A stretch of DNA of 64,000 nucleotides, taken from contig CBDANS010000007.1 in NCBI GenBank assembly GCA_965197745.1, positions 640,001 through 704,000 of the forward strand, written 5' to 3'. The DNA is from Opitutales bacterium (GTDB lineage: Bacteria > Verrucomicrobiota > Verrucomicrobiia > Opitutales > PNEW01). A model generated the notes under the pieces. That model saw only the letters and a program-made list of their open reading frames with translations, was not told where the DNA came from and searched no databases. Below are positions 16,824-52,800 of this stretch, piece by piece (the stretch's first letter is position 1; every line of letters begins with the position of its first letter). The translations under genes and the position numbers were made by a program.

Positions 16824-17881
16824 TCACTCATAAAATCGGTAAACATTAAACTTATTAATAATATTTATGTTTGAAATTAGATAATCTATAATTACTTTGA
16901 CACAAAAAGGGGCTAGGAGAGCTCCTTTTGAACCTAAACCGTTAAAAATGATTATTTGGGGAAATTGCGCATGAGGTCCAATCACGGGCAGGGAATCCGT
17001 CAACGCCGGGCGAACACCCACTTGGTACCCTTTCACCATGAATTTCAATGAGGGGATAAAGGAAAGAAGGCCCTGAATAATTTCGTTTTTCCCGTTCTCG
17101 CTTGGGTGATGATCGAGGGAATGCCAAGAATAAGTGGCACCTGCCATGTAGTGTTTTGCTCCCAATGGGAGAAGCCATTTGCCACGATTCAGGATGGTGT
17201 TGGGATTAAACGGTTCGTCCGATTCGAGTAAAAGCACTTCACCCCTGGCGGGTTTGAAAGGTAAATCCTTAAACCAGGGATTCTTGAGAACTTGAAAACC
17301 TTCACAGAAAATAATTCGTTCAGCTGTCCAATTATTCCAGACAACTTTGCTATTCTCTAATTTTAAATCAGGATAGCAAAATCGAGAACGAATCCGTAAA
17401 CGCTTTTTATCGAGATAGTCACCCAGATCGTTAATCAGTTTTGATATATTGACATAGGCAGCCGGTGTCAGCGTGAAGCTTCCATATGGATCGATGAAGA
17501 TTCCTGGATTCGAATCGGGCTCATGCACGGAATTAATATATTGCATAAATGCCGGCTCTTCCTGCGACTTTTAAATAGCTGAAATTCCTTATCAGTTCCA
17601 ATGAAACGATGCACCAACATTTCATAAAAATAGCGATCGCCAAAAACTGACTCCAGTTGACGATAGAGGGTAGAAGCTTCGGAGTAGAATCGATGGAACT
17701 GCCAGGCGGATGTCAGGCGCTGACCTGTAATGGGATTGATAATGCCCGCGGCGGCGAGTGATGCGGCTCCCGTATGACCATCGTCAACAACCACAAATGA
17801 CGCCCCCCTCTTCAGCAATTGCCAGGCAAGCGAGCTGCCTGCTAACCCCTGACCAACGATAATATAATCTACACTATCCAC
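16824..17881 (-). pseudogene. FAD-dependent oxidoreductase (DAO/glycine oxidase-like), frameshifted near 17560
   Basis: N-half has YIIVGQGLAG and ASLAAAGIINP; C-half has ARGE, GVRP..D.LPVIG and NGLGSKG in another frame. Confidence 0.85.
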
Positions 17882-17895
17882 CTAAATTTAATATA

Positions 17896-18017
17896 AATCT
17901 TCGTCTTCGTCCTCGTTCTCGTCTGCATCCTAAAAAGTCTTCAATTTCTGGCTCTATGAATACTTATAAATAGTAAATTGGGAGATGCTTGTGGATTAAT
18001 TCTGGACGAAGACGAAG
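17896..18017. repeat. ~140 bp MITE-like (TTCGTC)n-ended repeat, left part; interrupted by IS110 and continuing at 19267-19284
   Basis: Rejoined sequence aligns with the intact direct copy at 19339-19475 (GTCTGCATCCTAAAAA...TGGACGA...CGAAGAGGCAGACG). Confidence 0.85.
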
Positions 18018-18025
18018 CAATTGTG

Positions 18026-18958
18026 TCATGAAGCAAGAGCTAATTGATGTTTTTTAAGAAGGGACTGCAGATGAATAAGGAGTTTTCTCATGGCCGCAAC
18101 GAGAGCACATTTGTAAGGCATTCCCCGATCGACTAACCTCTGCACATAAGGTTTGATCACGGGGTTATGTTGAGCCGCGGTGCGAGCAGCCATATAGAGA
18201 CATTTTCTGACTTTGGCACGACCTCCTTTTATCGATCGCTTAGAATGGGTCTTGCCACTGTCACGATTATAGGGAGCCAGACCGGCAAGAGCGACCAACT
18301 GATTGCGGCCCAGATGAGTCATTTCGCTCATATAAGCCAGGAGGGTCCAAGTCGTCACTTCACCGACTCCTTTGACTGAAGCGATAAGTTCGGCTTTCGC
18401 ACGCAGTGGATCATTCTCGTTGATGAGCAATCGCAGCTGTTTGTCGATGCGATCGATTTCGTTCTCAACGAAACGGATCATGCGTTGGATGGAAAGGTGG
18501 ATGCTCTTGGGACTGTTCTGCAAGCGGTTCTTCTCGCGGCCAAGCTGTTCGCTCAGATGATGGCGTCGATCCAGTAAAGCAGTCATCTGTTGCTGTTCGG
18601 GTGTCGGGGGAGCTGTTGGGGACAACTGCTTTTGCTGAGCAAAGCGCAGCAATACCTTGGCATCGATCTTATCGGTCTTTGCACGGATGCCATCGCTCGT
18701 GGCGAAGGCCCGTACGCGCGCAGGATTAATCAGGCACACCACAATCTGCGCTTCATGCAAAGCGCTCAACAAGGCGCGCTCGTAGCCTCCTGTGGCTTCG
18801 CACACCACAAAGGGGGCATCCATCTTTCCTATGGCTTTGAGCAGTTCTTTGAGTCCCGACTTGTCGTTGCTTAGAGCGTAACTTTGCTCTGCACTTTGCA
18901 CTTGCAAGGTGTTTTTGGCTATATCTATGGCGATGAGGGTGTGTTTTTTTTCATTCAT
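18026..18958 (-). CDS. IS110 DEDD recombinase (bridge recombinase)
   Basis: 310 aa; RuvC-like D (IAIDIAK), E (CEATG), D/D (KTDKIDA); Tnp domain GLAPYNRDSGK with putative catalytic Ser; GGRAKVR..LYMAA; VAAMRKLL. Confidence 0.96.
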   Translation of the reverse strand: MNEKKHTLIAIDIAKNTLQVQSAEQSYALSNDKSGLKELLKAIGKMDAPFVVCEATGGYERALLSALHEAQIVVCLINPARVRAFATSDGIRAKTDKIDAKVLLRFAQQKQLSPTAPPTPEQQQMTALLDRRHHLSEQLGREKNRLQNSPKSIHLSIQRMIRFVENEIDRIDKQLRLLINENDPLRAKAELIASVKGVGEVTTWTLLAYMSEMTHLGRNQLVALAGLAPYNRDSGKTHSKRSIKGGRAKVRKCLYMAARTAAQHNPVIKPYVQRLVDRGMPYKCALVAAMRKLLIHLQSLLKKHQLALAS

Positions 18959-19145
18959 GGCTATCTCGGTCTTGTCAAGATGAGCTCGCGGGGGTATAAT
19001 CCGGGCTCTTTCAATTGTTTGAGATTAGCCAGGTTAGATCGGAGGTTCCCAGGCTTCGTCTTGAACTCCGCTAACGCGGGTTCCAGAGGCAGAATGAACT
19101 CTTCCGATTTGCTCCCGGCTCCTCTTATTAGGAGTCGGGAGTTCC
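18958..19145 (-). ncRNA. Predicted bridge RNA (5' stem-loop, target-binding loop, donor-binding loop)
   Basis: Hairpin 19113-19140. TBL stems 19096-19108/19038-19048 and 19063-19083, guides 19085-19093 and 19054-19062. DBL stems 19021-19031/18958-18967 and 18982-19008, guides 19012-19018 and 18971-18975. Confidence 0.88.
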
Positions 19146-19256
19146 TGGCACTCTCAACCGTAGACACTGTTGAAAGCTTTTTCCAGTCCTTCCTCCGACG
19201 TGTTACGATGACCCATTCTCGGAAGGACTCAAAAGGTTGTCTTATCATCGCGGGGT

Positions 19257-19262
19257 AACCTA
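19257..19262 (-). promoter_or_regulatory. Putative -10 box (TAGGTT) of a junction promoter formed on IS110 circularisation
   Basis: In the circle, TTGCTT (18036-18031) lies exactly 17 nt upstream of TAGGTT across the CT core. Confidence 0.55.
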
Positions 19263-19338
19263 CAAGAGGCAGACGCAGACGAAGAGTGTAATATGATATA
19301 TTTGTGGTGGTAAAGGGTAGATATTAATTACCCCCCAT

Positions 19339-19475
19339 TTTCGTCTATGTCCTCGTCTGCGTCTGCATCCTAAAAACCTTCAATTCCCGGCGATTGGAAT
19401 CCTCTCAATAGCGAACCAGAAGATGGTAGTCTGTTGATCCTGGACGAGGTCGAAGAGGCAGACGAAGACGAAGAT
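19339..19475. repeat. Intact ~140 bp (TTCGTC)n-ended MITE-like repeat
   Basis: Inverted ends TTCGTCTATGTCCTCGTC... / ...GAGGCAGACGAAGACGAAG; direct diverged copy of the IS110-interrupted repeat. Confidence 0.85.
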
Positions 19476-19501
19476 TTTATATATTATTTTAACCCGCTTT
19501 C

Positions 19502-19727
19502 TCCAAGCCCCAGCGGGGCGATACATATTTAGCCCATTGCGCAAGCAATGGGTATTGTGATCTACCATCCATTTTCAGAGCCCTGGAAGGTCGACACATA
19601 TAGACTGTCAATCCGGTTTGTGTCGCCCCTCTGGGGCTTTTTTTTTCGTTAATTATTTCCCACAGCTAAAGCTATGGACTATGATTGTTTCACCCCTCCG
19701 GGGTGAAATCAACTGGGTAGACGAAGA
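19502..19727. repeat. ~225 bp self-palindromic REP/BIME-like element, copy 2
   Basis: Reverse-complement copy of 5030-5255, sharing TAGACTGTCAATCCGGTTTGTGTCGCCCC. Confidence 0.85.
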
Positions 19728-43275: not shown

Positions 43276-43617
43276 ACTTCGTCTACGTCCAATTTTAAGT
43301 CCCAATTAATTAATTAGTTTTAATAAAATAACAATGGCGGGACGCACTCCGTTTCGTCCGCTTAGGAGTATAATCATAGAAATTTCATAAAATAAAAGTA
43401 AGCCTCAAATCACTTTCTTTTTTTGTGAATTTTGTGCCTTTTGTGGCTATCTTAATCAAAGACAAAGATTATGGTAAATCATCGTAGAATAAATCTTCGT
43501 CATCGTCTGCCTCCTCGTCTTCGTCCTTTTTTACCCAAATTACTAAATAATAAGGGGTATTAAATCTAATACTGTTACTCAAACTTCCCAACGGACGCGA
43601 CGGAGCGCATCCCTCCA
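43276..43617. repeat. Intergenic repeat mosaic (TTCGTC hexamer units and GGACGCGACGGAGCGC REP modules)
   Basis: Motifs at 43276-43290, 43334-43460, 43491-43526 and 43593-43617, shared with 5021-5554. Confidence 0.75.
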
Positions 43618-43751
43618 TATAATATATTTACGCGATTGTAAAGTTGACACGTGTATAAGGGGTTATCTATCATGTTTGAATGCGTAGAAGGGCACAGTTG
43701 TTTTTCATCTGGGTTGGAGAGGTGTTTGTTGGTTTAATTGTGGATTTTTTT

Positions 43752-52600: not shown

Positions 52601-52623
52601 TTAGATGCTCGCGGATCAAGGTA

Positions 52624-52800
52624 AGCTTCGTCTTTGTCTGCCTCCTCGTCTTCGTCCCGGGAGGTTATTATCGAAACAATAAAACTGTATATTTTATAAA
52701 TAAATAATTCGATTACAAAAATGGTGGTTAAAGGCCAAAGAGGAGGCAGACGAAGACTAAGCTGTATTGAAAGATGCGTAATAATCTTCGTCTACGTTCC
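52624..52800. repeat. (TTCGTC)n-ended inverted-repeat element
   Basis: AGCTTCGTCTTTGTCTGCCTCCTCGTC (52624) is inverted to GAGGAGGCAGACGAAGACTAAGCT (~52740-52763); extra unit at ~52785-52800. Confidence 0.8.

Follow-up and report, generated by a model that had tools for sequence, protein, structure and literature searches.

The question raised by this locus is whether an insertion sequence (IS) that interrupts one of two neighboring repeat units was directed to its site by a bridge RNA of its own. The window (the whole stretch of DNA analysed, 64,000 nucleotides) derives from an uncultured Opitutales bacterium (Verrucomicrobiota). We are confident that positions 18018-19266 of the window constitute an intact, recently active IS of the IS110 group whose bridge RNA targets the core of a host repeat. 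The element is an ordinary case of a known mechanism: its own bridge RNA matches a short intergenic host repeat.

Ends and recombinase of the element

The element (18018-19266, minus strand) is 1,249 bp in length, including one copy of its CT core at 19265-19266 (which reads AG on the plus strand); the second copy of the core is host sequence at 18016-18017. Read on the plus strand, the junction at 18017|18018 (left) is ...CTGGACGAAGACGAAG|CAATTGTGTCATGAAG... and that at 19266|19267 (right) is ...ACCTACAAG|AGGCAGACGCAGACGAAG...; joining the flanks accordingly gives the sequence that the original prediction had written. The occupied target is split into a right half (core CT plus TCGTC; 18011-18017, minus strand) and a left half (TCTGCCT; 19267-19273, minus strand). 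The ends were common to the four full copies in the host genome (G000), which are 99.8-100% identical, and related copies in three further genomes (G001, G002 and G040) had the same end sequences as the window element. CT flanks on both sides, together with these ends, were found in 4 of 4 copies in G000, 10 of 10 in G001, the single copy in G002 and 5 of 5 in G040. As in the IS110 group, terminal inverted repeats are lacking, and the same CT core is present at both junctions. The non-coding portion comprises only 8 nt at the right end of the element and 308 nt at the left end.

The recombinase gene (18026-18958, minus strand) encodes 310 amino acids and contains both IS110 family domains. PF01548 (DEDD_Tnp_IS110) was matched at residues 5-148 (E 2.4e-23, 83 bits; cut-off 29), and the C-terminal PF02371 (Transposase_20) at residues 189-273 (E 2.6e-19, 69.8 bits; cut-off 21.3). 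The best match among solved structures was the ISCro4 recombinase (9t56; E 2.7e-38, residues 8-300), a likeness of recombinase sequence only. The D, E, DxxD and SG positions were conserved in the alignment with ISCro4. The IS621 recombinase of E. coli (8wt6) has the same two domains (PMC11208160 and PMC11208158, in excerpt) and was compared by E value alone (6.7e-38). In the genome contigs searched, recombinases from beyond the host's bacterial family were at most 41% identical.

Predicted bridge RNA and its guide segments

In the predicted fold of the 308-nt left end, a 5' stem-loop is followed by the target loop and then by the donor loop. The bridge RNA core was predicted at 18959-19149 using a single-sequence fold and RNAalifold; within it, the 5' stem-loop was placed at about 19112-19141, the target-binding loop module at about 19038-19108 and the donor-binding loop module at about 18963-19025 (all on the minus strand). 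A structured RNA upstream of the gene, here with two predicted internal loops, is a further feature of the IS110 group. RNAalifold, applied to four lineages, returned 52 pairs in the core, 10 of them with compensatory change; the structural compensations all stem from few comparisons, and the guide covariation described below comprises three lineages. The first 117 nt of the left end (19150-19266, minus strand) lie upstream of the canonical bridge RNA and contain two further conserved hairpins. The same treatment yielded 36 pairs there, including six compensatory ones, all six from the comparison with G040. A search of the element region against Rfam at E≤1 returned no bridge-RNA family, only a sub-threshold match to Acido-Lenti-1 and a spurious miRNA match; for the whole window at the gathering score, one tRNA and nothing else was reported. 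No sigma-70-like promoter was detected on the minus strand of the left end in a promoter scan.

Matches to the host site flank one internal loop on opposite sides (9 nt and 8-9 nt). The left target guide, UCUGCCUCU (19085-19093, minus strand), is the same as the left target TCTGCCT plus the core CT, and the right target guide, (A)AGACGAAG (19054-19062, minus strand), is the reverse complement of the core CT plus TCGTC(TT). In the rule published for IS621 (PMC11208160, in excerpt), the 5' side of the target loop carries the left target and core, and the 3' side is complementary to the core and right target. Read against TCTGCCT-CT-TCGTC, both guides conform to that rule and lie on the strands that it requires. 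Matches to the ends of the element (7 nt and 5 nt) flank the next loop in the same way, one on each side. The left donor guide ACAAUUG (19012-19018, minus strand) repeats the 7 nt with which the right end closes, and the right donor guide ACAAG (18971-18975, minus strand) is the reverse complement of the core CT plus TGT, the trinucleotide that opens the left end. The left donor guide stops short of the core, carrying AA in place of the expected CU, and the match of the right donor guide is limited to 5 nt. The “handshake” bases were also found: the C that follows the right target guide pairs with donor position 7 (G), and the A that follows the right donor guide pairs with target position 7 (T). 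Neither base pairs with its own DNA, and in IS621 the position-7 bases are likewise unpaired with their own DNA (PMC11208158, in excerpt).

Following the IS621 model, the 308-nt left end would be transcribed into the bridge RNA. One internal loop would pair with the 14-nt host site TCTGCCT-CT-TCGTC, and the other would pair with the joined ends of an excised circle, ACAATTG-CT-TGTAG. The DEDD/serine recombinase would then exchange strands at the CT core, leaving CT on both sides of the inserted element. The sequence into which the recombinase and left end should integrate is TCTGCCTCTTCGTC.

The likeness to IS621, so far as the excerpts of PMC11208160 and PMC11208158 describe that element, extends to the left-end bridge RNA with its order of 5' stem-loop, target loop and donor loop; to the site layout (7 + CT + 5), guide-strand rule and position-7 handshake logic; and to a target that is a multi-copy intergenic host repeat. 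The present element differs in its 308-nt left end, in which the canonical RNA is preceded by about 117 nt with two additional conserved hairpins, and in a non-coding right end of only 8 nt. Where IS621 has a REP palindrome as its target, the present element has a pyrimidine-rich motif composed of six-base units. Metagenomes were also scanned with 15 specified bases, the conserved frame of the target loop. The 119 stretches that this returned were rejected as chance matches, none of the 80 loci with DNA encoding a relative of the recombinase.

The contigs of four sequencing runs (X2, X7, X8 and X9) were also inspected. The IS was present in them, and record 1 of X2 spans 17400-18040. The depth of the IS was about five times that of its flanks. 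The original prediction had suggested looking for the empty allele in reads; neither it nor a circle junction was found among the contigs of these four runs, in which rare variants are invisible. The only joint seen was a repeat-to-repeat one from 17924 to 19451, with 23 nt on its shorter side.

The host repeat and the use of its sites

The target site is the core of a motif of about 33 nt, which consists of six-base units (consensus aaTCTTCGTCTTCGTCTGCCTCTTCGTCTTCGTCC), is rich in pyrimidines on one strand and has no self-complementarity. The repeat had been described beforehand as a (TTCGTC)n-type one; it proved instead to be one specific motif, which forms the inverted ends of palindromic units. 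A profile of the motif gave 118 matches at E≤10. At E≤0.01, 46 of 52 matches lie fully outside open reading frames (ORFs) of 100 amino acids or more, in a map of which ORFs make up 84% (binomial p 2e-30). Neighboring motifs were convergent in 21 of 31 pairs (p 7e-7), and the 21 convergent pairs bound palindromic, MITE-like units of 102-337 bp. The palindromy exists only between the two motif copies, which are 26-266 nt apart. Folding of the compact units gives hairpins whose stems are long but imperfect, with about 25 paired positions in the best case and far weaker pairing in others. As small, non-coding, multi-copy units bounded by terminal inverted repeats, they have the makeup of MITEs; a consistent target-site duplication was not found at the 21 unit ends. 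Convergent motifs 0.4-4 kb apart enclose an aminotransferase, a pseudouridine synthase, an ORF without a Pfam domain, the IS recombinase and an unscanned 110-aa ORF. No foreign transposase and no autonomous parent of the units was found among the scanned ORFs between motif pairs at these distances.

Classification of the motif as a REP was considered and rejected, because the 33-nt unit is not itself an imperfect palindrome. Nor was a RAYT link found: the sole PF01797 (Y1 transposase) gene in the host genome has no copy of the motif or hairpin within 1.5 kb. A separate look at G000 C7:1.09-1.112 Mb gave no motif or hairpin matches either. In a full-text search of the literature for IS110 elements with MITE targets, none of the matches listed dealt with this repeat. 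When the 19-mer core of the repeat (up to one mismatch) was sought in 41 genomes, 47 occurrences were found in G000, 17 in G001, 72 in G002 and none in the other 38. Among the genomes searched, the motif is confined to the host's bacterial family.

In the window, the larger part of the interrupted unit lies at 17896-18017 and runs from an outer inverted end (17896-17928) through an internal segment into the beginning of the second end; the remaining 18 nt of that second, IS-interrupted end are at 19267-19284. An uninterrupted sister unit of 137 bp follows at 19339-19475. The proposal that removal of the IS restores the repeat end was borne out, as the rejoined end and 19443-19475 differ at 3 of 33 positions. 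The sister had been called an intact direct copy, and its alignment with the unit freed of the IS (17896-18017 plus 19267-19284) does extend over the full length. It had also been called a copy of a dispersed repeat; the dispersed family is the terminal motif of about 33-35 nt rather than the 137-bp unit. In a sensitive BLAST search with the sister unit, all 49 non-self matches covered just its last 35 nt or so.

The sister unit contains the target sequence TCTGCCTCTTCGAC (19449-19462, minus strand), which has one mismatch to the 14-mer and the orientation of the occupied target. The copy of the motif at 43492-43526 on the plus strand has CC as its core (TCTGCCTCCTCGTC, 43506-43519) and belongs to a longer subfamily unit of about 150 nt, and a convergent pair of motifs (52623-52657, plus strand; 52740-52763, minus strand) bounds a 142-bp unit at 52623-52763. 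The related sites named in the original prediction at 19449-19462, 43506-43519 and 52637-52650 each differ from the 14-mer at one position. A fourth, at 52741-52750, falls within the profile match at 52740-52763, but this is a weaker one (E 0.09).

All four copies of the IS in the host genome are inserted in the 14-mer TCTGCCT|CT|TCGTC, each at the same CT and with one shared orientation, a point that the original prediction had proposed to check. The empty site rejoins as predicted in that the rejoined sequence stands uninterrupted 16 more times in the genome. Both results favor the original prediction. In addition to these 16 free exact sites, 44 one-mismatch and 139 two-mismatch sites were counted. 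The corresponding means for three Markov-1 simulated genomes were 0, 1 and 20.7, and a control pattern read backwards had no matches. Occupancy in the host genome was 4 of 20 for exact sites and 0 of 44 for one-mismatch sites. Fourteen of the latter differ at the second core base (12 of these are TCTGCCTCCTCGTC); under the IS621 model, such near-cognate sites should be unusable. All four IS copies lie outside ORFs of at least 100 amino acids. Since the motif is mostly intergenic and located in inverted unit ends, it affords about 20 exact landing sites at which no gene is disrupted. By their location, the 46 motif matches and the four copies outside ORFs are consistent with the “intergenic safe harbour” that had been proposed, a putative role.

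Related lineages and alternative readings

Each of three lineages has its own left guide, and the guide and target change together. In the host genome, the guide UCUGCCU accompanies the site TCTGCCT in 4 of 4 copies. In G001, which represents a sister genus, the left target guide (UCAUCGUCU) matches its own flank: the guide is UCAUCGU, and the site is TCATCGY|CT|TCGTC. TCATCGY was found in 9 of 10 copies, with the right half TCGTC in 8 of these 9; the tenth copy is in TCTTCGT. (The right flank of one copy, L019, is aberrant.) In G040, which holds a more distant relative of the element, the left target guide (CGCAUGUCU) also matches its own flank. The guides there are CGCAUGU and UAGUGAG, and the sites have CGCATGT in 3 of 5 copies, CGCATAT in 2 of 5 and CT plus CACTA in 5 of 5. 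The left donor guide in G040, ACAGUUG, likewise corresponds to its own right end, ACAGTTG, and the right donor match is extended to CUACAAG. The exception is the single copy in G002, which has a guide of the G000 type but a site, TCTTCCA|CT|TCGTC, with two mismatches in the left target. The match of the guides to the 14-mer and their change with the target in two related lineages uphold the central claim of the original prediction, namely that the bridge RNA is programmed against a dispersed repeat. Exact sites were filled in 8 of 9 cases in G001, compared to 1 of 44 one-mismatch sites of the TCTTCGT type (Fisher p 9e-8); in G002, 26 exact sites are free (0 of 26 occupied).

Other elements insert into repeats as well. 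In the IS1111 group, the guide RNA is downstream of the gene. The present element, with its guide RNA upstream, resembles a case from that group in being a member of the wider family inserted in the inverted end of another mobile-looking element; its target differs in being a small unit that is not autonomous and for which no parent transposon is known. A parallel in site use comes from Pseudomonas putida, where two IS110 elements, ISPpu10 and ISPpu9, are found exclusively in identical copies of a single intergenic repeat (bioRxiv 10.64898/2026.03.19.712850 and PMC12288879, both in excerpt). As in the present genome, their targets are mostly non-coding and often in convergent pairs; for ISPpu10, the excerpt of the former source gives 97.1% of REP targets as non-coding and 40.8% as convergent. 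Those REP targets have a gating, GC-rich 5' stem-loop that the window target lacks.

The ISPpu10 case, in which a REP stem-loop is reported to serve as a second layer of specificity (bioRxiv 10.64898/2026.03.19.712850, in excerpt), is a precedent for supposing that RNA pairing plays no part in recognition, or does not account for it alone, and that the recombinase also reads the structure of the target (a hairpin or cruciform of the palindromic unit). The targets do lie in inverted-repeat units able to form long imperfect hairpins, and the G002 copy, despite its two-mismatch site, is within the repeat and in the same register. We nevertheless consider this reading unlikely. The sequence TCTTCGTCTTCG, which extends the target on its 5' side, shows no complementarity to the left target; a local stem-loop of the ISPpu10 type is therefore absent. 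Copies 2 and 3 in the host genome adjoin a flanking repeat unlike that of copies 1 and 4, and at least two copies in G001 (L013 and L016) occupy exact 14-mers whose left context is unlike the repeat. Moreover, within the repeat family, exact sites are far more often occupied than one-mismatch sites.

Copies 2 and 3 have a 92-bp right-side flank in common at 98% identity, and their insertions may therefore be non-independent. Extended to all four copies, this would mean spread by duplication or by homologous recombination between repeats, with flanks inherited rather than chosen, an account that we regard as very improbable. The 92-bp flank is a member of a multi-copy family with many matches at 70-90% identity, and the left-side flanks of the same two copies diverge beyond about 11 nt of the motif. 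Copies 1 and 4 have the motif alone in common, long collinear flanks are absent for three of the four copies, and the flanks of the 10 copies in G001 are unrelated beyond the site.

It is scarcely credible that the motif is part or product of the element (as solo ends, excision footprints or carried flanks), such that the IS makes its own sites: short left-end relics do occur beside motif-like sequence (G000 C7:1372253-1372309 and two in G002), and the repeat and IS lineage co-occur in three genomes, but motif copies far outnumber IS copies (47 vs. 4 in G000, 72 vs. 1 in G002), the free sites are uninterrupted 14-mers in a 33-nt motif dissimilar to the interior of the element, and units with inverted ends exist without any IS sequence inside.

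Apparent retargeting along the repeat and its meaning

The G000 type of element inserts after the TCTGCC unit of the repeat, and the G001 type inserts one unit further, after TCATCG. Judging from the guide sequences, the G001-type element appears to have been re-aimed six bases (one unit) along the repeat by three substitutions in the left guide, with the right guide kept. Because the repeat units are near-identical six-mers, the right guide AGACGAAG fits every one of them. The close IS lineage was confined to G000, G001 and G002, the same genomes that harbor the repeat. Synteny was kept in the relatives. The spacer between the ferritin and DAO genes, however, measures 1,893 bp and holds two units in G000, against about 170 bp and no unit in G001 and G002 (one locus); as the whole repeat block is missing from the latter spacers, they provide no strict empty IS site, and the empty allele sought in related genomes was not found there.

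The mechanism has already been published, so no new category is opened. The element adds a phylogenetically remote bridge recombinase, from the Verrucomicrobiota, for which all guide segments can be read from the sequence, and it provides a clean case from nature in which close relatives differ by a reprogrammed guide. The occupancy figures amount to an in-genome measure of specificity, with exact sites filled and one-mismatch sites almost empty. For annotators, these Opitutales genomes contain a previously undescribed family of intergenic repeats with about 50-70 occurrences per genome. More broadly, there is perhaps an even chance that the IS lineage and the family-specific palindromic repeat are a co-evolving pair. 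In such a pair, the three left-guide substitutions would have moved the integration point by exactly one unit, copy number would track the supply of exact sites, and the genomes would hold a natural record of retargeting, saturation and, possibly, escape of the host repeat.

The element and its predicted bridge RNA

The insertion sequence (IS), a member of the IS110 group, occupies window positions 18018-19266 on the minus strand. On the plus strand, the left junction (18017|18018) reads ...CTGGACGAAGACGAAG|CAATTGTGTCATGAAG... and the right junction (19266|19267) reads ...ACCTACAAG|AGGCAGACGCAGACGAAG..., with 1,249 bp between the two. Read on the gene strand, the arrangement is TCTGCCT|CT-TGTAGGTTACC ... 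CACAATTG|CT-TCGTC; one of the two CT dinucleotides at the element ends belongs to the element, the other to the host. The sole long ORF (18026-18958, minus strand) encodes a 310-aa recombinase with DEDD_Tnp_IS110 (E 2.4e-23) and Transposase_20 (E 2.6e-19) domains. Among solved structures it matched ISCro4 (E 2.7e-38) and IS621 (E 6.7e-38), and the ISCro4 alignment shows conservation at D, E, DxxD and SG.

The 308-nt left end of the element in the gene-strand sense (19266 down to 18959) folds at z = -3.4 relative to shuffles. RNAalifold, applied to this sequence together with its homologues from three related lineages, returned a 5' stem-loop followed by two stem/internal-loop/stem modules, and 10 of the 52 predicted pairs are compensated by changes on both sides. 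No Rfam model matched the predicted bridge RNA. The guide segments fit the rule published for the IS621 bridge RNA (PMC11208160). In the first (target) loop, the 5' side, UCUGCCUCU, equals the left target plus core, and the 3' side, (A)AGACGAAG, is the reverse complement of the core plus TCGTC(TT). In the second (donor) loop, the 5' side (ACAAUUG) equals the final 7 nt of the element, and the 3' side (ACAAG) is the reverse complement of CT plus TGT, the element's first bases. The poorer fits to the rule are that the core is not covered by the left donor guide and that the right donor match is short. The base 3' of the right target guide (C) could pair with G at donor position 7 but would mismatch T at target position 7; conversely, the base 3' of the right donor guide (A) could pair with target T7 but would mismatch donor G7. 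The same base arrangement is found in IS621, the structures of which showed that this handshake favours strand exchange (PMC11208158).

Two further features of the left end were noted. Its first 117 nt (19150-19266, minus strand), upstream of the canonical bridge RNA, form two hairpins whose pairing is kept through six double changes in the relative from G040, a genome of another family of the order. IS621 is not known to have a counterpart of these hairpins. On the plus strand, a strong sigma-70-like site (18972-19000; TTGTCA-17-TATAAT, 11/12) lies antisense to the donor loop and is directed outwards, across the left end towards the host flank; such sites are no more numerous in the region than in shuffles.

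Element copies and the dispersed target

A BLAST search of the host genome (G000; 7 contigs, 4.45 Mb) with the element yielded four full copies (99.84-100% identity) and one 57-nt relic. All four full copies have TCTGCCT at the left-end side and CT+TCGTC at the right-end side, which bears out the proposal of insertion into a dispersed target with a fixed core. Beyond this 14-mer, copies 1 and 4 share only the repeat motif; copies 2 and 3 are alike over 92 bp (98% identity) on one side, a flank that belongs to another multi-copy family, and are unlike on the other. All four lie outside ORFs of at least 100 aa, three of them between convergent ORFs. A free exact target (C7:1407760-1407773, on the contig that holds the window) is located ca. 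230 bp from the end of copy 2, within an adjoining motif copy. With the present locus, an occupied site therefore has a free sister site nearby at two of the four copies; the other two have partial motifs nearby. Contigs from four public sequencing runs contained the IS; neither a clean empty site nor a circle junction was found in them. Solo relics of the left end (its first 57-164 nt, 77-83% identity) occur at C7:1372253-1372309, still adjoining target-like sequence, and at L009:1501-1664 and L022:487-576 of G002, a genome of the same family.

The original prediction held that the bridge RNA is aimed at a dispersed genomic repeat. The data support this: G000 contains 16 free exact 14-mers, 44 one-mismatch sites and 139 two-mismatch sites, compared to means of 0, 1 and 20.7 in three simulated Markov-1 genomes. 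The flanks of these sites yielded a consensus of ca. 33-35 nt, aaTCTTCGTCTTCGTCTGCCTCTTCGTCTTCGTCC, at whose limits conservation ends. Searching G000 with a profile of the 60 best sites gave 52 matches at E<=0.01; the number rose to 82 at E<=1 and to 118 at E<=10. By a crude map of ORFs of at least 100 aa (84% genome coverage), 46 of the 52 strongest matches and 15 of the 16 exact sites are fully outside ORFs; 32 of the 82 matches at E<=1 lie between two gene 3' ends. Neighbouring motifs not more than 400 bp apart form 31 pairs among the 118 matches. The convergent pairs (21/31) delimit units of 102-337 bp whose ends read AATCTTCG...CGAAGATT. Six compact units form hairpins with long imperfect stems (-11.7 to -33.5 kcal/mol, DNA parameters); in the best of these (C7:1481466; ca. 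25 paired positions), variant six-base units are mirrored between the arms.

An uninterrupted sister copy had also been described beside the IS. The interrupted unit (17896-18017 plus 19267-19284) and this 137-bp neighbour (19339-19475) do align end to end, but only their terminal motif, not the rest of the unit, recurs elsewhere in the genome. The target in the sister unit (19449-19462) has one mismatch, in its right half, and the same orientation as the occupied site.

Guide-target covariation and site occupancy

A DNA search among 41 related genomes located the element in three besides G000: G002 (one copy, 90% identity), G001 (same family, other genus; 10 copies, 84-86%) and G040 (five copies of a distant relative, partial matches of 71-72%). 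G031 gave one short, weak match (E 1.4e-6). The right guide is identical in the G000 and G001 lineages, and the G001 left guide, UCAUCGU, carries three substitutions relative to that of G000. TCATCGC or TCATCGT precedes nine of the ten G001 copies, eight of which continue with CT+TCGTC; TCTTCGT precedes one copy, and an aberrant right flank occurs at one copy (L019). In repeats of the form TCTTCG TCTTCG TCTGCC TCATCG YCTTCG TCC (for example, C7:726201-726232 in G000), the G001-type crossover lies downstream of the G000-type one by exactly six bases.

The guides of G040 are CGCAUGUCU and UAGUGAG. Its five identical copies (L004, L008, L012, L020 and L021) are inserted in TA(A/G)CCCGCAT(G/A)T|CT|CACTACCGAG: the left flank is CGCATGT in three and CGCATAT in two, each followed by CT, and CT+CACTA is on the other side in all five. 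Flank sharing extends over ca. 12 nt on the left (5/5) and, on the right, over 10 nt in all five and ca. 25 nt in four. The donor guides track the altered element end (ACAGUUG vs. ACAGTTG). The target being a different conserved sequence, which is probably another host repeat, this relative appears to land in a repeat as well. G002 is the exception: it has a G000-type guide, yet its single copy lies in TCTTCCA|CT|TCGTC, a site in the same repeat register that departs from the left target at two positions. A metagenome scan for more guide variants returned chance matches only, with a recombinase relative encoded at none of 80 loci.

Occupancy in G001 was 8/9 for exact TCATCGY-CT-TCGTC sites and 1/44 for one-mismatch sites of the TCTTCGT type (Fisher p 9e-8). 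In G000, 4/20 exact and 0/44 one-mismatch sites are occupied, and in G002 0/26 exact G000-type sites are. The second core base is altered in 14 of the 44 one-mismatch sites of G000, 12 of these being TCTGCCTCCTCGTC. Several such sites belong to a longer subfamily of ca. 150 nt, clustered at C7:683-803 kb in eight intergenic places 4-60 kb apart. Its unit comprises a CC-core motif, then TTACCCTAATTACT...GGGGTATTAAATCTAAGACT, then a GGCCACG hairpin (one copy is at window 43480-43620).

Class and distribution of the repeat

The repeat looks like a MITE; in the motif units, neither a target-site duplication nor a parent element was found. A strict REP was rejected, as the single motif is non-palindromic and the sole Y1-transposase gene in G000 has no adjoining copies. 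The 19-mer core (<=1 mismatch) occurs 47 times in G000, 17 in G001 and 72 in G002, and is absent from the other 38 of the 41 genomes, among them G003, a same-family assembly in 290 contigs with 82% completeness. The ferritin-DAO spacer in which the IS lies measures 1,893 bp in G000; its counterparts in G001 and G002 are ca. 170 bp long and free of the repeat. The repeat block was thus gained or lost after the genera split. Five head-to-tail cores, CTTTGTCTTCGTCTGCCTC, with an 18-nt period at G002 C2:1514791-1514881 show that the motif is capable of tandem expansion as well.

Other features were observed nearby. Downstream of the IS, a gene for a DAO-family FAD-dependent oxidoreductase (16824-17881, minus strand) is broken into two ORFs (137 and 240 aa) that overlap. 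In G001, G002 and G003 the orthologous gene is one continuous ORF (368-390 aa). A contig from a public run (X2) matches 17400-18040 without difference, which makes a genuine frameshift probable. A sub-threshold Rfam match to Acido-Lenti-1 (19506-19552, minus strand; E 5e-5, 33.2 bits where 37 is the gathering score) immediately adjoins the sister unit; a similar sequence lies upstream of the motif copy at C7:742522. Over 19416-19667, contig depth is several-fold higher than in the flanks, which marks this as another multi-copy small element. A second dispersed repeat in G000, the hairpin GGCCACGACGGAGCGTGGCC (e.g. window 43590-43612), has 121 matches at <=3 mismatches, 41 of them exact, and lies within 300 bp of 29 of the 82 six-base-unit motif matches.

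That IS110-family elements land in REPs was already established (PMC11208160), with ISPpu10 and ISPpu9 as recent detailed cases of landing in repeats (bioRxiv 10.64898/2026.03.19.712850; PMC12288879), and the first bridge RNA paper already included guide-target concordance across natural orthologues (PMC11208160). What is new here is the repeat family, the retargeting by one unit between sister genera, and the contrast in occupancy between exact and one-mismatch sites.
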